Origin: Candidatus Poribacteria bacterium
GTDB taxonomy: Bacteria; Poribacteria; WGA-4E; WGA-3G
DNA: 64,000 nucleotides
Direction of reading: 5' to 3'
NCBI GenBank assembly: GCA_022821725.1
Contig: JAJEDB010000129.1
Coordinates: 7,914-71,913, forward strand
The translations under genes and the position numbers were made by a program. The notes under the pieces were generated by a model. That model was not told the origin of the DNA, did no database searches, and was given only the letters and a program-made list of their open reading frames with translations. Below, in pieces: positions 6,726-61,924 of this stretch. The stretch's first letter is position 1; every line of letters starts with the position of its first letter.

Positions 6726-7763
6726 GTGAATTCTACTATCTACCCATTCAAATCTGTTGGTTCAATGAAGGAACAAGACTCCTCGCAATTCAATTCTAAA
6801 AACCATGCGTTACCGCTGAAGGGACACGTATACTGTAAAGTTTTATTTGATGAAGTTTTTCTACCCGTTTTAAAAAAACGCTTTCCGGAGGTCCTTCCTC
6901 GCCTCAGTGCTGGAATCATCGGATTAGGATCCGATGTTCTTGGTGCCGATGACGAACTGTCACGCGATCACGACTGGGGACCCAGTAAGTGCCAACTCCT
7001 GCTGCCGGAAGAGGATATTGCAGAATATGGATCTTCTATTGCTCAAGCTCTGGAGGCGGCTATTCCAGATGCGTTTTTAGGAATTGACACGACCCAATTG
7101 CAACCGAAGACAATACGGATAAACACCATCAACGCAGTCTATCGTGATTTTCACGAATCTGCCTATCCACCTGTGAGGATCGAGGAATGGGCTGCCGCTG
7201 ATGATAACAATCTCTGCTATGCGTCGTCCGGTTTTGTTCTCTACGACCCCTCTAATGCCCTTAGCGAACGCATATCCGCTTTCCAAAAGGCGTACTACCC
7301 GGCAGACATCTGGAAGTGGAAGATCGCGAGTGATCTATGGGGACTTTGGCACAATGGCGACTACAACTCGTGCTATCGTTTAGCGAAACGCGGGGATGGT
7401 ATAGGTTTACTCATTGGCCAGGGTGCTTTCGTCGAAGGCACCCTAAGACTCCTGTGTCTGTTCAATAGACGCTTTCCCGTATACTGGAAATGGCTACACT
7501 GGCAGGCACAAAGCCTTCCGAAATGGATGGACCTGATAGAACCCTCTCTCAAGAAACTCGAATCGGCAAACAATCATGAAACGCGCAGCGAGATCATCCA
7601 CACGATATGTCAATCAATTCGGGAAATCCTTTACAAAATGGATTTACTTCCCGATACAGAATGGCGCAATTACATGGGGAGCGAAGAGATTGTCCTGCAA
7701 ATCGAATCGACTCAGGTGAAGGCGTTGATTCGGGAGAAAGAACCCCATTTGTATGTGTGGTAA
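6726..7763 (+). CDS. DUF4037-like (nucleotidyltransferase-associated) protein
   Basis: 345 aa. 'GLGSDVLGADDELSRDHDWGP' and the C-terminal 'RRFPVYWKWLHWQ' recall DUF4037 proteins. Start uncertain (GTG 6726 or ATG 6765). Confidence 0.4.
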   Translation: MNSTIYPFKSVGSMKEQDSSQFNSKNHALPLKGHVYCKVLFDEVFLPVLKKRFPEVLPRLSAGIIGLGSDVLGADDELSRDHDWGPSKCQLLLPEEDIAEYGSSIAQALEAAIPDAFLGIDTTQLQPKTIRINTINAVYRDFHESAYPPVRIEEWAAADDNNLCYASSGFVLYDPSNALSERISAFQKAYYPADIWKWKIASDLWGLWHNGDYNSCYRLAKRGDGIGLLIGQGAFVEGTLRLLCLFNRRFPVYWKWLHWQAQSLPKWMDLIEPSLKKLESANNHETRSEIIHTICQSIREILYKMDLLPDTEWRNYMGSEEIVLQIESTQVKALIREKEPHLYVW

Positions 7764-7784
7764 TTAACCTAACGGAGGAGTGAT

Positions 7785-8456
7785 TTGAAAGCAGTCTTCT
7801 TTGATTTGTTTGAAACACTCATAACAGAGAAAACGAGAAAGGATTTCCAAGCACGGGCTCCGTTTCATGAACGGCTGGGCACGACTGAAGATAAATCTTT
7901 GCTTTGGTGGGAGGAAAATGAGGATGCCGCGATGATCGGAAAATTTCCTGATTGTCTGGCGAGGTTCACCGATATGTGTATAGCAGTCGAGTCGCCACTG
8001 ACGAAAAATGAGATTATCATGGCTGCCCAAGAGCATGAGGTATGGAAATCGAAAGTCTTGGGTCAAGTCGAGCCTCAGATATTTGAAATGTTGCGCGCCG
8101 TCCGGGCGTGTGGGCTGAAAGTTGGAATTATCAGTAATGCCCTGCCCGAAGAAGTCCTCGCTTGGCAATTTTGTCCGCTCCAAGATCACGTGGATCCGGT
8201 CGTGTTTTCCTGCAGTGTTGGGGTAATGAAACCCGATAGGGAGATATTCGAGCTGGCTTGCTCACGCATGTGTGTTCAACCTTCTGAAGCGTATTTTGTT
8301 GGCGATGGCGGTTACGATGAACTGCGGGGTGCGGCATCTGTCGGTATGAGAGCGATTCAGGCGGCGTGGTATCAAGATCGAGATGTGGAATGGTCCTGCA
8401 CATCTCCTTTAGTCCGGGCAAATTCGATAAGGGACCTTCCCAAGCTGCTGTGGTAG
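7785..8456 (+). CDS. HAD superfamily hydrolase
   Basis: TTG start with GGAGG upstream. Motif I-like 'AVFFDLFETLI', 'GIISNA', motif IV 'VGDGGYDELRGA'. Confidence 0.65.
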   Translation: MKAVFFDLFETLITEKTRKDFQARAPFHERLGTTEDKSLLWWEENEDAAMIGKFPDCLARFTDMCIAVESPLTKNEIIMAAQEHEVWKSKVLGQVEPQIFEMLRAVRACGLKVGIISNALPEEVLAWQFCPLQDHVDPVVFSCSVGVMKPDREIFELACSRMCVQPSEAYFVGDGGYDELRGAASVGMRAIQAAWYQDRDVEWSCTSPLVRANSIRDLPKLLW

Positions 8457-11531: not shown

Positions 11532-11781
11532 TTTTTTATTTTCCCCCACTCGATGGGTAGCAGCTGCGGTCGGGGCAACACATCCAATGTCATAGGATCG
11601 AACCAATCGGCTGACGTGTTCGCGTGATACAGTTCTCCAATATGTGTCAGTTGTGTCACTTCTCGACTGCCTACTCATCGAATTACCTCTAAGAGATCCT
11701 GAAAAAACAGACTTCCTTTTCTGTCTGAACTCCATTCTAATAGATTTTCGCTTTTGTTTCAATATTTGAAATTTTACAGAT

Positions 11782-11901
11782 CAGGGTCATTCAGTTCTCG
11801 GTTTCTGAGTGGCTTATCGAGAGTAGATGTGACACTTTTGGCATAAATCGGGGTTGAAAACCCCTCCCACAAGAGAGATTTCGGACAATTGAATGACCCT
11901 G
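11782..11901. mobile_element. MITE-like element (12-nt TIR CAGGGTCATTCA, flanking TTACAGAT duplication)
   Basis: Left TIR 11782-11793, right TIR 11890-11901 (exact reverse complement). 'TTACAGAT' occurs at 11774-11781 and 11904-11911. Central hairpin GGGGTT-GAAA-AACCCC at about 11850-11865. Confidence 0.5.
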
Positions 11902-11976
11902 TCTTACAGATTCCCAAAACTTGCTATCTATTCCCAATTGTGATAAACTACTCTCAAGATTGATGTGTATAATATA

Positions 11977-12069
11977 TAGGACTTACGCAATTTTTCGATA
12001 AAGTGCTTACATATTGTGCTATTGGCGAGGTTCGGAAACCTCGCCAGCAAGGAAGCCGCGTAAGTCCTG
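11977..12069 (+). mobile_element. MITE family 1, divergent copy F
   Basis: TIRs AGGACTTACGC / GCGTAAGTCCT. Central hairpin GGCGAGGTT-CGGA-AACCTCGCC (12024-12045). No clear target-site duplication. Confidence 0.65.
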
Positions 12070-12086: not shown

Positions 12087-13199
12087 ATGCACGATCCACG
12101 ACTTGATAAACTCGCAAATGTTCTCACAACCCATTCCACGAAAATCCAACCCGGCGAATTTGTGCTCATTGAAGGCATAGATATCCCACAAGAGATGGTC
12201 ATTGCCCTCATCCGAGCAGTTCGGAAAGCGGGTGGGATACCTCTCGTGGAACTCAAGCAGAATCGCATCCAACGTGAAATTATTCTCAACGGAGACGATG
12301 CCGGAATAAAACTGATTGGTGAATACGAAATATATCGGATAAAAAAGGTCCAGGCGTATATCGGTATCCGTGGGAGCCACAATATCACAGAGCTGTCTGA
12401 CGTCCCAGCAGAGGCAATGCAACGCTATCAAAAGCATTGGATACGTCCGCTCAACGATATCCGCGTGCCACACACCAAATGGGTCGTTCTACGGTGGCCC
12501 TACCCGGCAATGGCACAACAGGCACAGATGAGCACAGAAGCGTTCGAGGACTACTATTTCGACGTTTGTACGCTTGACTACAGCCGAATGGAACAGGCGA
12601 TGAAACCCCTCACGTCTCTGATGGAGGAAACGGATGCAGTTCACATCGTCGGTGAGGATACCGATCTCCGGTTCAGTATCAAGGATATTCCTGTGATCCC
12701 GTGTGCCGGCGAAAAGAATATTCCCGATGGTGAATGCTTCACGGCGCCTGTGCGAGATTCCGTCAACGGCACGATCCATTTCAATACACCCACAATCTAT
12801 CAGGGAACGACCTTCACTGACATTCGCCTCGGCTTTGAAAACGGTAAAATCGTTGAGGCAACGGCGAATAACACCGAAAGACTGAACGATATTCTTGACA
12901 CAGATGAGGGCGCGCGGTATATCGGTGAGTTTTCTATTGCCTTCAATCCGTATATCACGAACCCGATGCTTGACATTCTGTTCGATGAGAAAATCGCCGG
13001 ATCGTTTCATTTCACCCCCGGTCAGGCTTACGAGGAGGCGGATAACAGTGTCCGTTCCGCGGTCCACTGGGATATGGTCATGATACAGACCCCGGAACAT
13101 GGGGGTGGAGAGATGTACTTTGACGGAAACCTGATTCGGAAGGACGGGCGGTTTGTTCATCCTGAATTGGAGGCACTGAATCCGGAGAACCTGAAATGA
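12087..13199 (+). CDS. Aminopeptidase, peptidase family M29 (PepS/AmpS-like)
   Basis: 370 aa from the ATG at 12087 ('MHDPRLDKLANVLTTHSTKIQPGEFVLIEG...'). The length and N-terminus are typical of M29 aminopeptidases. The track ORF start at 12003 lies inside MITE copy F. Confidence 0.75.
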   Translation: MHDPRLDKLANVLTTHSTKIQPGEFVLIEGIDIPQEMVIALIRAVRKAGGIPLVELKQNRIQREIILNGDDAGIKLIGEYEIYRIKKVQAYIGIRGSHNITELSDVPAEAMQRYQKHWIRPLNDIRVPHTKWVVLRWPYPAMAQQAQMSTEAFEDYYFDVCTLDYSRMEQAMKPLTSLMEETDAVHIVGEDTDLRFSIKDIPVIPCAGEKNIPDGECFTAPVRDSVNGTIHFNTPTIYQGTTFTDIRLGFENGKIVEATANNTERLNDILDTDEGARYIGEFSIAFNPYITNPMLDILFDEKIAGSFHFTPGQAYEEADNSVRSAVHWDMVMIQTPEHGGGEMYFDGNLIRKDGRFVHPELEALNPENLK

Positions 13200-13200
13200 G

Positions 13201-13293
13201 TAGGACTTACGCAAAATGATCCAATTTCCTCTATTTTCACAGGATTCGGTGCGGTTGGGAAACCGCACCTACCGGGGGAGTGCGTAAGTCCTG
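13201..13293 (+). mobile_element. MITE family 1, copy A
   Basis: T-AGGACTTACGCA ... TGCGTAAGTCCT-G. Hairpin GGTGCGGTT-GGGA-AACCGCACC (13248-13269). ATGAG is duplicated on both flanks, and the left copy overlaps the pepS-like stop codon. Confidence 0.85.
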
Positions 13294-13351
13294 ATGAGCA
13301 GAAAACAACACCCGGTATACGGGGATCCCCAGCGAAAGGAATAATTAAAGA

Positions 13352-14831: not shown

Positions 14832-15851
14832 CTATTTCTGTTTGATTTGTCCCCATGTTGTCGTCAATAAATTCGGTTTAGGTGCGACTGGCAGGGCATA
14901 CGCTGGATCGAACCAGTCGTCTGGGCTATTTGCTTGGAAGAACTCTCCAAATACCTTTGGTATAAAAGTATCTGTGAGCTGCTCCGAAACATCGCTGCCC
15001 AACGCTATTTTGAAGACTTGCAAGCGGTTATGCTTATCGGTTTTGTCATACAGAAGGGCATCCCCTTGCGGAGACCAGACCGGCGAAGTTTCTCTCGGGG
15101 GAGTATTGCTTGCAACTCGTTTAAGTCCGGTCCCGTCGCTATTTAGCGTATAAAGCGTTTCCATTTCAATGTTTTTCTGTTCCGCTCCCGGATTCCAAGA
15201 AAAAGCCAGCTGATCCGTTGTTGAAGACCATACTAAAGTGCCATTTATCCAAGTAGATTGTGCCTCGCGTGGAAAGAGCACCTTCTGTTTTTTCGTGCGC
15301 ACGTTAAGCATATTGATTCGCACCTGCTTGTTCTCAAATCCAGAGAGGAAGGCTATCTGCGTCCCATCAGGAGACCACGCCGGTTTACCTCCTCCGATCG
15401 CCACGCGTTCCTCTTTTTTCCCATCTATTGTCCCGATGTAGATATACGATCCATTCAGTTCTCGCCTTCTGTAAGCAATCTGTTTCCCATCTGGCGACCA
15501 CGTCGCTGCAGATCTGTCTTCTGACTTGCCGAACACCCGCCTCACATTTTTGCCATCAGGATCCATGAGATACAGGTCTCGACTGAGCGTAAACCGATCA
15601 CGGTCAGAGGCAAAAAGAATGTGTTCCCCGGTTGGAGACCAAGCGGCCAGGGCATCATCTGAACGATGGTTGGTCAACCGCATCTGATCGCTTCCATCAG
15701 GATTCATCATATAGATTTCGCGATTGCCGTCACGTGTTGAGGTAAACACAATTTTGGCGGTTGTAGGTGCTTTTGAACATATTCCAGAAACGCTGACGCT
15801 TAGTAAACTCACCGTCACGACAGCAGATAGAAAAAAACGTTTATATTTCAT
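14832..15851 (-). CDS. Exported TolB-like beta-propeller (PD40 repeats), paralog 1, with conserved C-terminal tail
   Basis: Signal peptide. Repeated 'IVFTSTRDGNREIYMMNPDGS', 'AWSPTGEHILFASDRD', 'WSPDGKQIAYRR' PD40 units. Ends 'ALPVAPKPNLLTTTWGQIKQK*'. Confidence 0.8.
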   Translation of the reverse strand: MKYKRFFLSAVVTVSLLSVSVSGICSKAPTTAKIVFTSTRDGNREIYMMNPDGSDQMRLTNHRSDDALAAWSPTGEHILFASDRDRFTLSRDLYLMDPDGKNVRRVFGKSEDRSAATWSPDGKQIAYRRRELNGSYIYIGTIDGKKEERVAIGGGKPAWSPDGTQIAFLSGFENKQVRINMLNVRTKKQKVLFPREAQSTWINGTLVWSSTTDQLAFSWNPGAEQKNIEMETLYTLNSDGTGLKRVASNTPPRETSPVWSPQGDALLYDKTDKHNRLQVFKIALGSDVSEQLTDTFIPKVFGEFFQANSPDDWFDPAYALPVAPKPNLLTTTWGQIKQK

Positions 15852-15878
15852 CAGAATTCCTCCACGAGTTAAACTTAA

Positions 15879-15970
15879 CAGGACTTACGCAAAATGACCA
15901 AATTTCACCTATTTTCACAGGATTCGGTGCGGTTAGAAACCGCACCTACCGGGGGAGTGCGTAAGTCCTA
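15879..15970 (+). mobile_element. MITE family 1, copy B
   Basis: 12-nt TIRs AGGACTTACGCA/TGCGTAAGTCCT. Hairpin 15926-15946. ACTTAA duplicated at 15873-15878 and 15971-15976. Confidence 0.85.
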
Positions 15971-15995
15971 ACTTAAAACACATTATTATAGACGA

Positions 15996-16979
15996 TTATT
16001 GTTTTAATCGTCCCCATATCTCTGTTGCCAATTGGGGTTGTGGTGCGACTGGCAATGCGAACGCTGGATCGAACCAATCCCCTACAAAATTCCGGAAACT
16101 GGGATCGGCGAGTTGCACCGGTTCGCCACCATCCACTGTAACTTTGAAGATTTGCTGCGTGTCATTCCGGTCCAGTTGACTATAAAGCAGTGTGTCTCCT
16201 CGTGGAGACCACACTGGCTCTACGGCTCGCTTTCCTTCTTCAATAATCTGCTGTAGACCTGTGCCATTACGCTTGACAATATAGATTGTCTCTAAATGCG
16301 CATCCTCGCGCCGAAACTCAACACGATTATACCAAGAGAACACCAATCTATCTCCTTCCGGCGACCATGCCGGATGCCGAACCCACGCGGGTCCCTTGGG
16401 CGGAAAAAAGAACTTGTGTTTACGCGTTCGCACATCTAATATACTAATCCGCCTGGGGTTTCCTACTGCCCCTTCAATAAAGGCGATCTCCGTGCCATCA
16501 GGAGACCACACGGGTTGGCTGCCAAGTGCGATACGTTCCTCTTTTTTACCATCTATTGGTGCGATATAAATATAGAACTTCCCCTGCTCCCAGCGGCTGT
16601 AAGTGATCTGTTTGCCATCCGGCGACCATGTTGCCCTGCCCCGCGCCGCTTCCTTCTCGAACACGCGCCGCACATTCGATCCATCGGCATCCATCAGATA
16701 CAGATCCCAGTCTCCTGGAGCCCCGTCTTGGTCAGAGTTAAAAAGAATGTGTTCGCCCGTCGGAGACCATTTCGGACCGCCATCCCTTGCGAGATCGTGG
16801 GTGAGGCGCACCTCCTCGCTGCCATCGGGATTCATGAGATAGATGTCCAGATTCCCATGACGCCACGATGAAAACACTATTTTTGCTGATGTGGGTGCTC
16901 CCGCCCACACCTCATAGATACCTATGTCTACTGCGGCTACACTTAGCAGAAAACATAGGAGAAAACACTTATGTCTCAT
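15996..16979 (-). CDS. Exported TolB-like beta-propeller (PD40 repeats), paralog 2
   Basis: ATG at 16979 (MRHKCFLLCFLLSVAAV...) has GAGG 6 nt upstream. PD40 repeats. Ends 'ALPVAPQPQLATEIWGRLKQ*'. Confidence 0.8.
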   Translation of the reverse strand: MRHKCFLLCFLLSVAAVDIGIYEVWAGAPTSAKIVFSSWRHGNLDIYLMNPDGSEEVRLTHDLARDGGPKWSPTGEHILFNSDQDGAPGDWDLYLMDADGSNVRRVFEKEAARGRATWSPDGKQITYSRWEQGKFYIYIAPIDGKKEERIALGSQPVWSPDGTEIAFIEGAVGNPRRISILDVRTRKHKFFFPPKGPAWVRHPAWSPEGDRLVFSWYNRVEFRREDAHLETIYIVKRNGTGLQQIIEEGKRAVEPVWSPRGDTLLYSQLDRNDTQQIFKVTVDGGEPVQLADPSFRNFVGDWFDPAFALPVAPQPQLATEIWGRLKQ

Positions 16980-17039
16980 GGAATACCTCATCACAGGAAA
17001 ATTATAATTCAGGACGTTCCACACCAATCTAACGACCAA

Positions 17040-17161
17040 TAGGACTTACGCAATTTTGATCATTGTTCTCGCTATGAGAAAGGGATTGTATAAAAAACAT
17101 AGGCGGTCTGTGGCACAGGCTAACAGCCTATGCTACAAAAGAGCGTCCTACGTAAGTCCTA
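17040..17161 (+). mobile_element. MITE family 1, copy C (same ends, different 120-nt core)
   Basis: AGGACTTACGCA ... TACGTAAGTCCT. The core carries a CTGTGG-[CAGGCT-AAC-AGCCT]-ATGCTACAAAA hairpin instead of the GGTGCGGTT hairpin. GACCAA is duplicated on both flanks. Confidence 0.75.
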
Positions 17162-17198
17162 GACCAATCTCCGGAAGCACTATATTCGCAAACAGCCG

Positions 17199-18176
17199 TT
17201 ACTTCGTTTTTATTTCTCCCCACTGTGTCGTTAACAATTGGGGTTGTGGTGCGACTGGCAATGCAAACGCAGGATCGAACCAGTCACCTACAAAATGCCA
17301 AAATTCTGGATTCGTGAGTCGCACAGAAACGCCGCCATTCAACCCAATTTTGTAGATTTGCAACGGCTTGTCTTTGACACGTCGGTTATAAAGCAGGGCA
17401 TCTCCCCGAGGGGACCAGACGGGAGAGGTTGCTCTCGAACCTTCTTCGTCAATAACCTGTTGAAGTCCTGTACCATCTCGGTTTATAATGTATATTGTCT
17501 CTGTATCAGCAAACTGTTTCAATGGGACCTGATGGAGCCATGTAAACGCTATTTGATTCCCTGAAGGGGACCATGCTGGAGATGTCATCCACGAAGGTCT
17601 TACCGGTCTGGGAAACAATACCTTCTGTTTACGCGTGCTGACGTTGAGAATCGTGATCTGCATGCGCTCGGGCCACCCCGTAAGAAAAACGATTTCTTCT
17701 CCATCCGGTGACCACGCAGGACTCCCCCCAAAAGCCACCTCTTCCTCATTTTTGCCATCTATTGTCCCGATGTAGATATACGCGCCACTCGGTTCTCTCC
17801 GTCTATAAGCAATCTGTTTCCCGTCCGGCGACCACGTCGCTGCAGATCGATGCGCTTCTTTGCCAAATACCCTCCGGACGTTCGAGCCGTCCGGCTCCAT
17901 CAGATATAAGTCAAGCACACCCCCTCGATCCGACGCAAAGAGAATATGCTCACCTGTCGGAGACCACATCGGATAGCCATCGAGTGCCTTGTGCTGGGTA
18001 ATGTTTACCTGATCAGTACCATCAGGATTCATGATATAGATGTCTCGATTTTCGTCACGATAGGCTGAAAAGACAATTTTAGGGGTGTCAGGTGCTTTTG
18101 CCAAAACAGGGTAGATATTCAGGCATAACATTACGTAACTTAACGCGAAAAAGAACGAGACGTATGGATTTCTCAT
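17199..18176 (-). CDS. Exported TolB-like beta-propeller (PD40 repeats), paralog 3
   Basis: ATG at 18176 (MRNPYVSFFFALSYVMLCLNIYPVLA) is preceded by GAAGGAAAAAATA. PD40 repeats. Ends 'ALPVAPQPQLLTTQWGEIKTK*'. Confidence 0.8.
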   Translation of the reverse strand: MRNPYVSFFFALSYVMLCLNIYPVLAKAPDTPKIVFSAYRDENRDIYIMNPDGTDQVNITQHKALDGYPMWSPTGEHILFASDRGGVLDLYLMEPDGSNVRRVFGKEAHRSAATWSPDGKQIAYRRREPSGAYIYIGTIDGKNEEEVAFGGSPAWSPDGEEIVFLTGWPERMQITILNVSTRKQKVLFPRPVRPSWMTSPAWSPSGNQIAFTWLHQVPLKQFADTETIYIINRDGTGLQQVIDEEGSRATSPVWSPRGDALLYNRRVKDKPLQIYKIGLNGGVSVRLTNPEFWHFVGDWFDPAFALPVAPQPQLLTTQWGEIKTK

Positions 18177-18403
18177 TATTTTTTCCTTCAAAGCAGAAAA
18201 GAAATATAACCATCCATTATTATATTATCAAGTATGATATGAATTCAACAAACATAAGTAGGGTTAGAAAAAACCCTTAATTATAAAGACACAATTTCAG
18301 GATGGAAAGGGTGCATAATTTTAAAAATCGGTGCGTTAGGTGCGTATATTCATCAAGCAAGGCGATTTTCGCTGAATATACCCTAATCAAGTTTTACACC
18401 ACC

Positions 18404-18530
18404 TGAGACTCATTTTCTACTGGATGGAATCTGAGGAAACACGAAATTCAGATTTGAAAAAAATGTGGAAATGTGATAACATGTTCACAATTTAAAATTC
18501 AAAAACGGTAGCCTGCAACAACAGCGCAGG
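18404..18530 (+). repeat. Direct repeat copy A bracketing the restriction-modification segment (uninterrupted 'empty-site' version)
   Basis: 18447-18530 aligns with 22865-22947 at roughly 90% identity by eye. The similarity extends upstream to 18404 ('TTACACCACCTGAGACTCATTTTCTAC...'). Confidence 0.8.
18454..18482 (+). promoter_or_regulatory. Sigma-70-like promoter inside repeat copy A
   Basis: TTGAAA - 17 nt - (TGa)TAACAT, with an extended -10 TG. Lies 255 nt upstream of the RM gene start. Confidence 0.35.
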
Positions 18531-22696: not shown

Positions 22697-22871
22697 TTTT
22701 CTATTGGATAGAATCTGGGAAAAATCCGAAAATGAAGATTAAGAATTTAATCAGGTAATTCCCCAACGTGCGATAAATCGCACTACTACGAACCAACCCG
22801 TTTGTAGTAGGGAGACCATTCATGGTTTCCCGTCAATTACCCAATTTATCTATTAAGCCTCATATTCGGAT

Positions 22872-22900
22872 TTGAAAAAAATGTGGAAATGTGATAACAT
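22872..22900 (+). promoter_or_regulatory. Sigma-70-like promoter inside repeat copy B
   Basis: Identical TTGAAA-17-(TGa)TAACAT, 113 nt upstream of the ATG at 23013. Confidence 0.4.
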
Positions 22901-23012
22901 GTTCATAACCTAAAATTCAAAAACGAGAGCCTGCAACAATACGCAGGCAGACTTCAGGAACGAATCTCAGAGTCTTAACGCTCGCTATTTCTCCGCAAGG
23001 TAAATTTAAAAA

Positions 23013-26305: not shown

Positions 26306-26564
26306 TTTTTAATTATTCGCAAGGCGTTCAATGAAGTGATTTGTTTACTGAGGGTTCTTCTTTAAATCCGCCCGCGCCGTTGTTGCGGGCTACGGTCTTA
26401 ATCCAATTTTTTTGCACATAACCGTAGCCCACAATGGAATGGAGGGGTTTTTGCGAATCAACGCCGAATGCGCGTGTGGCATTCAGCGGGGTGTTTCTTC
26501 AGATAAATAGAATGCACGTCAACTTCTAAACGCACACTATTACTCCGCAAGGAAAACGAGAAAA
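26306..26564 (+). repeat. Composite intercistronic repeat region (IG1)
   Basis: Begins right after the stop codon with TTTTTAATTATTCGCAAGGCGTT. Contains hairpin GCCCGC-GCCGTTGTT-GCGGGC (26370-26390), modules shared with 40521-40557 and 55477-55527, and ends in the TCCGCAAGGAAAACGAGAAAA-ATG leader. Confidence 0.75.
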
Positions 26565-44179: not shown

Positions 44180-45247
44180 TTAATCCTCTTTCAACCTTTC
44201 CGCTTGATCGGCAGTTGTGAGCCGTTCAATAAAGGTCTGTAGCGCACCATCTAAAACGGAATCAAGTTGATAGGAACTGAATTGGATCCGGTGATCAGTT
44301 ACCCGAGATTGTGGGAAATTATAGGTACGAATTTTTTCGCTTCTGTCGCCACTGCCAACCATAGACCTACGGGTTTCGGCTCTTTCAGTATTAAGTTCAG
44401 ATTGTTTCTGTTCTTGGAGGCGGGCCCGGAGAATCTTCATCGCCTTTGCACGATTTTTATGTTGAGACTTTTCGTCTTGGCATGTCACAACCAGTCCGGT
44501 TGGTAAGTAGGTAATCCGAATAGCGGAGTCGGTTGTGTTAACGCTTTGCCCACCGGGTCCCGAAGATCGGTAGGTATCAATACGTAATTCGGTTGCCTCA
44601 TCAATCGCCAAATCGAGTTCCTCCGCTTCAGGGAGCACCGCCACGGTGGCGGCAGATGTATGAATGCGTCCACTTGCTTCAGTGGCAGGAATTCGCTGTA
44701 CCCGATGTATACCGCCCTCAAATTTCAGTTGACTGTATGCGTTCTGTCCTACAATTGAGAAGACGACCTCTTTGAATCCTTTTAAGCCAGTTGCGTTTGA
44801 ACTGAGGAGTTCTAACTTCCAATTCTGACGTTCAGCATAGCGGGTGTACATCCGAAACAATTCGGCTGCGAAAAGACTGGCTTCCTCGCCACCGGTCCCC
44901 GCACGGATTTCGATGATGACGTTTTTCTCGTCGTTCGGATCTTTTGGAACCAGAAGCACCTTAAGTGCCTCAGTAAGTTGCTCTTTTTTCGCAGTGAGAA
45001 CGTCCAACTCTTCCTGTGCTAATCCGAGCATCTCCGCATCCGTTTCGGCTTCTATGAGAAGCAGCGTATCGTCAAGGGCAGATTCTAATTGCTGATATTC
45101 CTGATAGGTGGACACGATTGGTGAGAGTTCCGCGTGCGTTTTAGATAACTCCATTAATCGTTGTTGATTTGAAATTTGCGCCGGGTCTCCGAGTGCTTGT
45201 TCGACTTCAGCGTATCTGTTTTCAATATCCTTGAGTTTCTCAAACAT
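44180..45247 (-). CDS. prfA: Peptide chain release factor 1
   Basis: 355 aa. 'GPGGQSVNTT' (GGQ) and 'PATEASGRIHTS' (PxT-type RF1 tripeptide context). Confidence 0.95.
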   Translation of the reverse strand: MFEKLKDIENRYAEVEQALGDPAQISNQQRLMELSKTHAELSPIVSTYQEYQQLESALDDTLLLIEAETDAEMLGLAQEELDVLTAKKEQLTEALKVLLVPKDPNDEKNVIIEIRAGTGGEEASLFAAELFRMYTRYAERQNWKLELLSSNATGLKGFKEVVFSIVGQNAYSQLKFEGGIHRVQRIPATEASGRIHTSAATVAVLPEAEELDLAIDEATELRIDTYRSSGPGGQSVNTTDSAIRITYLPTGLVVTCQDEKSQHKNRAKAMKILRARLQEQKQSELNTERAETRRSMVGSGDRSEKIRTYNFPQSRVTDHRIQFSSYQLDSVLDGALQTFIERLTTADQAERLKED

Positions 45248-45408
45248 TTTTTAATTATTCCTTGCCGTTAAAGCAAGTGGATTTGGAAATGGACGTTTCT
45301 ATGTTGCACCCACGACACAGTTAGGCATTTCCCGCGCCTACTGTTACTAAGGCACGGGTATCCGTTCTTGGAACACCGATCAATAGACTTACCTGCGAAA
45401 CGATACCT

Positions 45409-50754: not shown

Positions 50755-51495
50755 TCAACGACTAAAGACACGGAACAATTTTTTGATCGGATCGTAGAAT
50801 TGGTCAACAACCCGTTCTTTGAGCGGAATAATGGCGTTATCCGTAATCGTGATATGCTCTGGGCAGACCTTCGTGCAACATTTGGTAATGTTACAATACC
50901 CGATCCCGTCCGAATCTTTCAATTCTTCGAGACGGTTCTCAGTGTCAATTGGGTGCATTTCCAAGGAAGCGGCGTAAACGAAGAATCTCGGTCCGATGAA
51001 TTCGTCATGAAGATCGTGTTCTCGGAGGACATGGCAGACATCTTGGCAGAGGAAGCATTCGATGCATTTCCGAAACTCTTGGATGTGATCGATGTCTTCC
51101 TGTTCCATCCGCCACGTGCCGTCTTCGGCATCCGGGGGTCGCGGCGTGAACGGCTTCATCTTCTCTTTCACTCTGAAGTTCCAAGATACGTCTGTAACGA
51201 GGTCTTTAATGAGCGGAAATGCCCGCATCGGTTCGACGGTAACGGGTTCATCAAGCGACAGATCGTTGAGGCGTGTCATGCACATCAATTTCGGTTGCCC
51301 GTTGATTTCGGCGGAGCAGGATCCGCATTTTCCTGCCTTACAATTCCATCGCACGGCCATGTCGTTTGCCTGCTCGGCTTGGATACGGTGGACAGCGTCT
51401 AAAACCACCATCCCTTCGGAAACCTCGGTGTCGTAATTGACAAATTCTGCGCCATCCGCATTGCCACGCCAGATTCTAAAAGTTGCTTTCCCCAT
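50755..51495 (-). CDS. sdhB: Succinate dehydrogenase/fumarate reductase iron-sulfur subunit
   Basis: 246 aa. 'CKAGKCGSCSAEING' (2Fe-2S), 'CIECFLCQDVC', 'CNITKCCTKVCP'. Confidence 0.9.
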   Translation of the reverse strand: MGKATFRIWRGNADGAEFVNYDTEVSEGMVVLDAVHRIQAEQANDMAVRWNCKAGKCGSCSAEINGQPKLMCMTRLNDLSLDEPVTVEPMRAFPLIKDLVTDVSWNFRVKEKMKPFTPRPPDAEDGTWRMEQEDIDHIQEFRKCIECFLCQDVCHVLREHDLHDEFIGPRFFVYAASLEMHPIDTENRLEELKDSDGIGYCNITKCCTKVCPEHITITDNAIIPLKERVVDQFYDPIKKLFRVFSR

Positions 51496-51734
51496 GTTTT
51501 AATTATTCCTTGCGGTTCGGTCAAGTCAGTTTGATATATGAAGTGCTTCTCCGTAGACCCGCTCTCCATTACATTACGAGCTACATGCTTGGTGGATTGA
51601 CAAAGACTTAATCTTTCCTTGCGTTTTTTTAATTTTACCCAAGACGGTAGCCTGCAACAACGGCGCAGGCGGATATGAGCAGAAGCCTTTGATAAACAAA
51701 AAGCCTAATTTAACGCCTTGCGAATAATTAAAAA
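51496..51734 (-). repeat. Composite intercistronic repeat region (IG2) between sdhA and sdhB
   Basis: In gene orientation it starts right after the sdhA stop with the same 23-mer TTTTTAATTATTCGCAAGGCGTT as IG1. It is colinear with IG1 for ~95 nt, including hairpin GCCTGC-GCCGTTGTT-GCAGGC (51650-51670). It ends in the ACCGCAAGGAATAATTAAAAC-ATG leader. Confidence 0.75.
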
Positions 51735-53567: not shown

Positions 53568-53594
53568 GCTAATACTTCCTCTCTCTTCTCTACT

Positions 53595-53686
53595 TAGGAC
53601 TTACGCAAAATGACCAAATTTCACCTATTTTCACGAGCTTCGGTGCGGTTAGAAACCGCACCTACCGGGGCGGTGCGTAAGTCCTA
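53595..53686 (+). mobile_element. MITE family 1, copy D (between sdhC and sdhA)
   Basis: 12-nt TIRs. Hairpin 53642-53662. TCTACT duplicated on both flanks. Confidence 0.85.
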
Positions 53687-53693
53687 TCTACTA

Positions 53694-54664: not shown

Positions 54665-55402
54665 TTACACACGTGTATGCGTCAGAGGTTCCCAACCGAG
54701 CAGGCGTTTCGCTTTCGAGAGGTTAATCTCCTTCTGTTCATGATCCCCGGCAATGAAGAAAGCATCAAACCCTTCGTGTTCAACTGAAATCGCAGCGAGA
54801 TACGCGGTCGCCAAATCTTGCTCATCTGTCCACCAGATATGCACTGAGGACTCTTTCGGTTGGGTATAACGTTCAAGCCACTGTTCCCGCGTAGACGGAC
54901 CCGTGATCCGCAGTGCGATAAGCGACATGCCGTGTTCCCGTGAGAAGTATTCGCAGACCTGCTCGCCGAAACCCTTGGTTAACCCATAGACCCCCGGATT
55001 ATCGCGAGGTACGACATCCTCATACGGAAAATTGTTTCGTGTCCGTTCATGCACAGTGAAGGTACTCGTGTAGACGGCGTGTCGAATGCCTGCTTCCTTC
55101 GCGGCGTGTAGGACGATATGCAGTCCCTTCGCGTTCACTTCGTAGTTTGCGACAATGTCGCTGAAATCGGCGGCAGAGGACCGATCGCTCGTGGGTTGCA
55201 GCATCACCATATAGACGAACGTGTCCATCCCCTTCAACGCTTCCTGAACGATAGCAGGGTCGGTAACGGAGCCTTGGATGTAATCAATGGATGTATCTTT
55301 GGGCGGATTCGGGTCAAGGATTCGAAAATTGTGATGAGGCTTCATGTAAGGGAGTGTCATCGTCCCAACGTGTCCCGAACCCCCTATAAGCAAGACGTTC
55401 AT
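54665..55402 (-). CDS. NAD-dependent epimerase/dehydratase (SDR) family protein
   Basis: 'MNVLLIGGSGHVG' Rossmann motif. 'YGLTK' (YxxxK). Conserved leader TCCGCAAGGTATAATTAAAAA-ATG. Confidence 0.75.
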   Translation of the reverse strand: MNVLLIGGSGHVGTMTLPYMKPHHNFRILDPNPPKDTSIDYIQGSVTDPAIVQEALKGMDTFVYMVMLQPTSDRSSAADFSDIVANYEVNAKGLHIVLHAAKEAGIRHAVYTSTFTVHERTRNNFPYEDVVPRDNPGVYGLTKGFGEQVCEYFSREHGMSLIALRITGPSTREQWLERYTQPKESSVHIWWTDEQDLATAYLAAISVEHEGFDAFFIAGDHEQKEINLSKAKRLLGWEPLTHTRV

Positions 55403-55650
55403 TTTTTAATTATACCTTGCGGATAAGTCATAGCATCCGCGAATTTAACGGTTTGCGTGTTCGAGCCGCCCGCGTGTTTTTGCGAATCAACGCTGAATGC
55501 GCGTGTGGCATTCAGCGGGGCGTTTCTGCGTATTGTTGCGGGCTTGCGGTTGTCCTTTACCCGAAAACCTGATTATTATAGTAAATTCTGTAATTACTTA
55601 TACACTCAGCATCGGTGGGGTTAGGAAACCGCACCTACCGGGGGTTGAAA
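55403..55650. repeat. Composite upstream repeat region
   Basis: Contains the leader motif, a 51-nt module (55477-55527) nearly identical to 26448-26498, hairpin TCTGCGTATTGTTGCGGGCT (55525-55544), and a solo MITE-1 core GGTGGGGTTAGGAAACCGCACCTACCGGGGG (55614-55645). Confidence 0.7.
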
Positions 55651-55712
55651 GTGTGTATTTATTTTTGGAATTTACTATAAAAACTTTCCAACAGTTCCTA
55701 TAGGATCTGACG

Positions 55713-59712: not shown

Positions 59713-59733
59713 GGCGCGGTTAGAAACCGCGCC
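59713..59733 (+). terminator. Hairpin GGCGCGGTT-AGA-AACCGCGCC followed by TTTCTTAT (candidate terminator; solo MITE-1-type hairpin)
   Basis: Lies 30 nt after the isomerase stop. 9-bp GC-rich stem followed by a T-rich tract. Confidence 0.4.
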
Positions 59734-59759
59734 TTTCTTATGGAAGATCATTAAAAAAT

Positions 59760-61614: not shown

Positions 61615-61661
61615 TTATAGCGAAATGTGTCGTCTTTTCAGTTTTTTGTAGGTTTCCTTTA

Positions 61662-61753
61662 TAGGACTTACGCAAAATGACCACATTTTACCTATTTTCA
61701 CAGGATTCAGTGCGGTTAGAAACCGCACCTACCGGGGGAGTGCGTAAGTCTTG
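61662..61753 (+). mobile_element. MITE family 1, copy E
   Basis: AGGACTTACGCA ... TGCGTAAGTCTT. Hairpin 61710-61728. CTTTA duplicated on both flanks. Confidence 0.8.
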
Positions 61754-61924
61754 CTTTAGCAATTCGGCTGTGCGTTTGTGAAATAGGCCTCAGGTTGTGT
61801 CCGACTGTGACGTGCGGAAGTCAAGCGGGACGGGGAAAGTGACGTTTTTTCGGCATTTTTTCTCTCTGCGGGTTTTTCGTTGGCTTCGGTTATCCGGGTA
61901 TTCCGGAACATTGTTGTTATCAAC

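Follow-up and report, generated by a model that had tools for sequence, protein, structure and literature searches.

The 64-kb stretch of Poribacteria DNA analysed here, called the window throughout, carries an M29 peptidase gene, three tandem PD40/beta-propeller paralogs of 339, 347 and 330 aa, and a minus-strand operon with sdhA. It also holds six short repeats (copies A to F), which an earlier note, made from the letters of the window, had taken for a family of MITEs. By searching the window for the end sequence TAGGACTTACGCA with at most 2 mismatches, we found 12 matches that formed six convergent pairs, where 0.73 matches were expected by chance and 12 was not attained in any of 100 dinucleotide-preserving shuffles. 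These pairs fall exactly on the six copies as they had been placed (Table 1). First, terminal inverted repeats (TIRs) of 12-13 nt are present as proposed, but their sequence had to be corrected to the consensus Y-AGGACTTACGCA, written in this way because the outermost base varies, being T or C at the left and A or G at the right; the right end of copy E has 2 mismatches. Second, alignment bore out that copies A, B, D and E are nearly alike inside and that C and F differ: the cores of A, D and E are 90-95% identical to that of B without gaps, A having one extra base, and F and C share with the A-type copies the ends alone and have cores of their own. Third, the flanking duplications (TSDs) of A to E read exactly as the earlier note gave them, and F has none. 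Thus the copies are 92-122 nt long, have no coding capacity and carry a TSD in five of six cases. As the note had also said, the window contains no transposase, at least none that a tblastn search with the partner transposase described below could find (E >= 2.3).

Table 1. Positions in the window of the six MITE copies, their nested palindromes and other features named in the text.
Feature	Position	Strand	Length and type	Duplication or other detail
MITE copy F	11977..12069	+	93 nt, F-type core	no TSD
M29 peptidase gene	12087-13199			
MITE copy A	13201..13293	+	93 nt, A-type core	TSD ATGAG at 13196-13200 and 13294-13298
PD40/beta-propeller paralogs	14832-18191	-		
MITE copy B	15879..15970	+	92 nt, A-type core	TSD ACTTAA at 15873-15878 and 15971-15976
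Nested REP-like palindrome	15926..15949	-		GTAG-GTGCGGTT-TCT-AACCGCAC-C
Palindrome in other A-type copies	13248-13272, 53642-53665, 61709-61732			
Palindrome variants	12024-12045 (F), 17113-17136 (C)			
MITE copy C	17040..17161	+	122 nt, C-type core	TSD GACCAA at 17034-17039 and 17162-17167
MITE copy D	53595..53686	+	92 nt, A-type core	TSD TCTACT at 53589-53594 and 53687-53692
MITE copy E	61662..61753	+	92 nt, A-type core	TSD CTTTA at 61657-61661 and 61754-61758
Unrelated MITE	55577-55677		101 nt	TIR TAGTAAATTCTG.../...GGAATTTACTA, TA duplication
Solitary palindrome	59713-59734			compensated stem (GGCGCGG/CCGCGCC)
Intergenic repeat pair	18446-18521, 22864-22939		76 nt	92%
Intergenic repeat pair	26447-26498, 55476-55527		52 nt	96%
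Leader TTTTTAATTATTCCTTGCGG	45245-45285, 51493-51533, 55400-55440			adjoining start codons

Several copies lie very close to genes. The TGA stop of the M29 gene falls within the left TSD of copy A, in agreement with the overlap noted before (ATGAG contains TGA), and the end of copy F is 17 nt from the M29 ATG. Copies B and C occupy both spacers among the PD40 paralogs. Copy D lies inside the minus-strand operon: an ORF of 270 aa for a multi-pass membrane protein stops 2 nt before it, sdhA starts with GTG 27 nt after it, and the copy adds to this operon a stem-loop of -37 to -38 kcal/mol. It had been assigned to the sdhC-sdhA spacer; the spacer between membrane ORF and sdhA stands, but the name sdhC is not backed by a family match, the ORF upstream of sdhA having no match in Pfam or NCBIfam, and it is plausible that this ORF is sdhC. 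Copies as near to their neighbours as F to a start codon, A to a stop codon and D to the genes of its operon possibly affect them; the insertions are probably, for the most part, neutral passengers in spacers. Separately, the two other pairs of intergenic repeats upstream of genes, whose members are 92% and 96% identical, and the leader common to three places (Table 1) may be promoter or leader modules.

A literature search for the end sequence led to a single relevant paper, the description of ISPlag1. This insertion sequence (IS) of Planktothrix agardhii measures 1,306 bp, encodes one 337-aa IS701-group transposase and has the TIR CAGGACTTACGCAAGCACGCTATATATAG, and a 197-bp remnant bounded by its inverted repeats was found in Planktothrix (PMC2464740). 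At a Planktothrix plasmid locus named 'IS701-like element ISPlag1 family transposase' in RefSeq, we observed the ends C-AGGACTTACGCA...TGCGTAAGTCCT-G 1,306 bp apart, and the TSD TTCAA stands on both flanks of the Planktothrix plasmid ISPlag1 locus of that name. The terminal 13 nt (C/T-AGGACTTACGCA) are therefore identical in ISPlag1 and in the window MITEs, and the 5-bp duplication TTCAA is a further likeness. Within the 29-nt TIR of ISPlag1, only these first 13 nt match, and the cores of the MITEs are unrelated to it. Unlike ISPlag1, the window MITEs have a Poribacteria host, are 92-122 nt long and noncoding, and often have 6-bp duplications.

We then scanned a genome collection with one genome per species for TAGGACTTACGCAA and obtained at least 118 stretches, most of which repeat the 12-mer in inverted orientation 70-290 nt off, enclosing wholly different cores. 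Hosts of such MITE-size elements include Nostoc, Calothrix, Okeania, Trichodesmium, many Poribacteria, Anaerolineae, Undibacterium and other Burkholderiales, Legionellaceae and Desantisbacteria. Nostoc/Anabaena elements with AGGACTTACGCA ends are 124-148 nt long. Some cyanobacterial MITEs with these ends hold internal minisatellites (L011:1093-1356, L015:3056-3182 and L026:2820-3030), with units such as GTTCGCGTAGCGTCTCC, repeated about 6 times, or GGGTGTA, by which the element reaches 200-270 nt. Two sequences labelled 'MAG: Klebsiella pneumoniae' (L001 and L068) carry a 101-nt type of MITE whose other hosts are Undibacterium and Burkholderiales MAGs, and the label seems to stem from an error in binning or naming. 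As for density, unselected Poribacteria DNA holds 23 copies in 1.27 Mb and the window 6 in 64 kb.

The autonomous element with the same TIRs that the earlier note proposed to look for does exist, in the form of ISPlag1-group ISs of about 1.06-1.3 kb with a DDE transposase of about 340 aa. An Anaerolineales element of 1,059 bp (L039) has perfect ends and a transposase ORF that scores 317.6 bits to the NCBIfam model NF049921 'IS701 family transposase' (cut-off 250) and matches Pfam DDE_Tnp_1. We found 466 relatives of this transposase in genome contigs. Among the best 80 of these 466, scored with up to 2 mismatches per 12-mer (mostly 0), the ends lie 1.05-1.32 kb apart in 77; in one further locus they are 2.3 kb apart, and two loci are without ends. 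The hosts among these best 80 of 466 are Anaerolineae, Chloroflexia, Caldilineae, Trueperaceae, Latescibacterota, Krumholzibacteria, Cyanobacteria, Undibacterium, Noviherbaspirillum, Caballeronia, a Nanosynbacter MAG and several Poribacteria. The Poribacteria ISs (L162, L179, L180, L193-197 and L222) include one with a 344-aa transposase, 55% identical to that of ISPlag1 and scoring 393.8 bits to NF049921 (L179), and another with an intact transposase of 352 aa (L222). The transposases of these ISs also match NF033540 IS701, under its cut-off. An IS copy on an Acinetobacter baumannii plasmid has ends identical to the Y-AGGACTTACGCA type. In the Anaerolineales sequence OZ252150.1, we counted at least 24 near-identical ISPlag1-like copies of 1,058-1,060 bp (L039:3549-4607, L119-L141 and L165). 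The L039 transposase is split by a frameshift into ORFs of 95 and 284 aa, which could be real, perhaps programmed, or a long-read homopolymer error.

The IS701 family was defined by elements of 1.4-1.55 kb with 4-bp duplications and ends of the form ---YACT-Y--YR (De Palmenaer et al. 2008, PMC2266710). ISPlag1-type ISs resemble that family in a DDE transposase without full YREK, in duplications of about half a helical turn and in wide phylogenetic spread, and differ from classical members in their length of 1.06-1.3 kb and their duplications of 5-6 bp. We take these departures to indicate a distinct subgroup rather than a position outside the IS701 family. The transposase of ISAba11 is about 29% identical to those of this ISPlag1-type subgroup.

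In order to compare the target sites, we assembled a non-redundant set of 157 elements bounded by the TIRs, of which 83 were MITE-sized and 72 IS-sized, and examined the bases abutting their 13-nt ends. A perfect abutting repeat was found in 108 of the 157 (69%), of 5 bp in 94 and of 6 bp in 14. When left and right flanks were re-paired at random, a repeat of at least 5 bp occurred in 0.46%, so that the real excess is about 150-fold. The flanking matches are thus far more frequent than chance would allow; a frequency at the chance level of AT-rich spacers was the outcome that, according to the earlier note, would have spoken against its reading. MITEs and full ISs behave alike in this respect. 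The duplications listed earlier for the window were right in sequence; across the family they measure 5 bp, with 6 bp frequent in Poribacteria, which contribute 9 of the 16 6-bp duplications, B, C and D among them. A 7-bp duplication with the element starting at AGG could be discarded, since offset 1 gave a much better fit than offsets 0 and 2. AT-rich sequence and a weak two-fold symmetry characterise the targets: W stands at positions 1 and 5 of the TSD, and outside it there are W at -2/+2, T at -4 and A at +4.

We also compared the window with orthologous loci of related genomes, as the earlier note had suggested, and this comparison yielded precise empty sites for copies A, B, C and D. The window contig has an identical counterpart in a sponge metagenome assembly. 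Its M29 protein is 99% and 98% identical to those of two Candidatus Poribacteria MAGs, L229 (OY764016.1) and L200, and 78-96% identical to those of about 30 other Poribacteria genomes. In L229 and L200, the two closest genomes, the end motif is entirely absent from the orthologous 13 kb. First, the site of copy A is empty in L229, L200 and L209, where ATGAG occurs once; in L229 the ATG of that ATGAG opens a 161-aa ORF, of which the window keeps just the first ~35 nt, directly behind copy A. Second, the site of copy B is empty in L229, L200 and L202, which read ...CACGAGGTA-AGCTTAAAACAC... where the window has ACTTAA-element-ACTTAA, and a contig of run X7 bypasses 15861-15971. Third, the site of copy C is empty in L208, with GACAAA once. 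Fourth, copy D is bypassed by contigs of runs X2 and X7 that lack 98 nt, that is 92 + 6, with six letters shared. Copy D was inserted very recently, since the flanks of its site in the X2 contig depart from the window at only 4 of 894 positions (99.5% identity). Among the joints listed, none is an empty site of copy E.

The right end of copy F marks the exact point where homology with L229 resumes, with no clean empty site. Its spot could be an insertion hot spot, or the insertion could be an old one with turnover of core and flank or a rearrangement. Other-core MITEs at L225:5862-5982 and L254:5765-5982 end 17-18 nt upstream of the M29 ATG, like F (12069/12087). Around the M29 gene, L229 has a 200-aa ORF upstream and the 161-aa ORF downstream, both absent from the window (window 11778-11976 and 13294-13332, compared with L229:5132-5983 and 7118-7856). 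In the contig data, heterogeneous loose ends begin exactly at 15880, 15970/71 and 17161, which are element boundaries, as would be expected of a dispersed repeat. The bins that contain the MITEs have 25-200x the contig depth of their flanks, a ratio raised by the REP module described below.

The cores themselves fall into three subfamilies in the window (A/B/D/E, F and C), all of which have TSD-flanked relatives in other Poribacteria. An A-type relative with the TSD TAAAA lies in L298, with a 111-nt variant in L037, L291, L309 and L379; F-type relatives with TSDs are found at L204:7639-7728 and in L041, and C-type relatives in L005, L027, L221, L225 and L227. When the cores were compared with the sub-terminal sequence of the Poribacteria ISs sampled, nothing in common was seen beyond the 12-13-nt ends. 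Since the cores have no similarity to these ISs and the ends alone match, the MITEs are not simple internal-deletion derivatives of them.

Inside the cores lies a G+C-rich stem-loop of 20-25 nt, GGTGCGGTT-AGA-AACCGCACC-TAC, which corresponds to GTAG plus palindrome on the opposite strand. A palindrome with a GTAG tag is characteristic of REP elements (Di Nocera et al. 2013, PMC3733652). The copies could accordingly be regarded as REP/BIME-type units, which are tagged palindromes of 20-40 nt, spread by a REP-associated tyrosine transposase (RAYT) rather than by a DDE transposase, all the more as the palindrome is highly abundant in Poribacteria, often in tandem BIME-like arrays: an exact-match scan for GGTAGGTGCGGTTTCTAACCGCACC returned more than 110 Poribacteria stretches (loci L280-L388, among the matches listed). 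However, AGGACTTACGCA ends stand on both sides of just 5 of 116 sampled palindromes and on a single side of 1. The other sampled palindromes are part of other MITE-like families or of arrays, tandem or inverted, that also contain a second palindrome, GGTAGGCGCTGTTTCCAACTGCGCC (for example in L284, L342, L378 and L384). Moreover, the unit that varies between strains is the whole TIR-bounded element with its 5-6 bp duplication, not the palindrome, and elements of Y1 transposases have neither TIRs nor duplications. Spread by RAYT would account for the nested hairpin but not for a TIR-bounded element with a TSD, and we consider it a very unlikely origin of the six copies. We therefore favour their identification as MITEs, in which the hairpin would be a nested passenger, a separate REP-like palindrome. 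A role of the hairpin as a transposon signal was ruled out, as it occurs mostly outside these ends.

The fold of the copies bears on another explanation, namely that selection maintains them in spacers as structured RNA genes or cis-regulatory RNA motifs built of a long closing stem with a hairpin inside. On either strand the fold is much stronger than that of shuffled sequences (z -4.5 to -6), copies F, A and D lie just upstream of or between co-directional genes, and the internal stem shows compensatory changes, which in the C-type stem affect three pairs among seven copies. But a strong fold is a trivial result here, because TIRs and a REP palindrome produce it, and an Rfam scan of the whole window gave 0 matches at the gathering score. 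Nor does the orientation of the copies follow the genes: A lies between plus-strand genes, and B, D and E, in the same orientation, between minus-strand genes. In addition, the cores are unrelated among subfamilies and phyla, with the 13-nt ends alone conserved, and individual copies are precisely absent from close strains. Retention as RNA is thus about as improbable as spread by RAYT. With the copies again taken as MITEs, we note that a perfect stem of at least 8 bp occurs in 27% of MITE cores across phyla and in 1.9% of same-length controls (14-fold). Apart from this enrichment and the covariation, the picture is ordinary throughout.

The window holds a further, unrelated MITE (Table 1), which carries the same REP hairpin and is precisely bypassed by X2 and X7 contigs, with 2 shared letters; its relatives (TATAGTGGATCTTAGAATTAATGAGACACTCC...) occur at many Poribacteria loci. 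Its TA duplication suggests an IS630/Tc1-type partner. A variant of the palindrome with a compensated stem also stands by itself in the window (Table 1). IS630 elements duplicate TA and IS1595 elements 8 bp, and IS200/605-TnpB elements make no duplication. For the six copies, the earlier note had put forward an IS630/Tc1, IS5, IS1595, PIF or TnpB/IscB-associated transposase, a proposal left some room by a window without transposase, where the partner is not seen directly, and by the IS630-typical duplication of its other MITE, but which is extremely improbable, none of these being the partner, given that many full-length ISPlag1-group ISs have exactly these 12-13-nt ends and make the same 5-6 bp duplications, and that TA, 8-bp or absent duplications are a misfit with 5-6 bp.

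Taking IS-identical ends, TSD excess, precise empty sites, dispersed copies and the lack of coding capacity together, the MITE reading of the earlier note holds, and we conclude, with a probability of roughly 93%, that the six repeats are MITEs moved in trans by an ISPlag1-group (IS701-family) DDE transposase. Such a transposase would recognise and bind the 13-nt TIR Y-AGGACTTACGCA, which is the sole part common to MITEs and IS, the REP palindrome lying outside the transposition signal. Because they present the ends of the IS, the MITEs would be mobilised in trans. The transposase would excise or copy the element, presumably by cut-and-paste or copy-out respectively, and insert it at a 5- or 6-bp staggered cut into an AT-rich, weakly palindromic target, after which repair of the staggered cut would generate the flanking duplication. 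The enzyme is probably an ISPlag1-like transposase of this very genome. In the source sponge metagenome X1, we found ISPlag1-like contigs about 85% similar to the L222 IS, one of which carries the TIR at its end (...TGCGTAAGTCCT). A 1,088-nt IS unitig reaches a depth of 786 in X1, compared with about 30 for the genome of the window, these contigs being resolved at the level of the community; this depth fits a multi-copy IS in the sponge community.

A bolder reading, which joins the ends and the hairpin, seems to us rather unlikely: the 13-nt ends would be the whole signal, the cores would be rebuilt again and again round GTAG-tagged REP hairpins specific to the host, and the hairpin would be under selection. 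The ends would then stay invariant over more than 8 phyla, against a divergence of the transposases to about 50% identity, and any short DNA between two such ends would turn mobile. Mobility would be nested in two tiers, in that REPs are carried along by MITEs or MITEs arise at REPs. The compensatory changes and the 14-fold enrichment suggest that the hairpin is kept by selection, and it might act in transposition, in mRNA stability or in termination, for example in the sdh operon.

Similar elements are known from other bacteria. Nezha, a cyanobacterial MITE, has TIRs, TSDs, the ends of ISNpu3 and filled and empty sites (Zhou et al. 2008; PMC3184786). Compared by description, the window MITEs are like Nezha in being small, TIR-bounded and TSD-flanked, in sharing their ends with an IS and in having filled and empty sites. 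Nezha may be linked to the Y-AGGACTTACGCA TIR. The nested hairpin itself resembles REP/GTAG palindromes (PMC3733652) and the small dispersed repeats that lie within cyanobacterial MITEs (Elhai et al. 2008). Unlike in REP elements, the mobile unit defined by the empty sites is the TIR-bounded element with its TSD, in which the hairpin would be a passenger module.

The elements of the window are therefore bacterial MITEs, an ordinary and well-documented kind of mobile DNA, and this result is solid but unsurprising; they reveal no new mechanism. Our literature search returned no paper linking Poribacteria with MITEs. For these uncultivated sponge symbionts, the data document a recently active mobile family with a named partner transposase. 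Because even strains of 99.5% identity differ in their copies, the insertions can serve as strain markers in metagenomes of sponges. The MITEs also explain contig breaks in Poribacteria assemblies and flag insertions beside or inside operons, as at the M29 peptidase and sdh genes. Finally, searching any genome for the 12-nt TIR AGGACTTACGCA offers a simple and highly specific way to locate ISPlag1-group ISs and the MITEs that belong to them.
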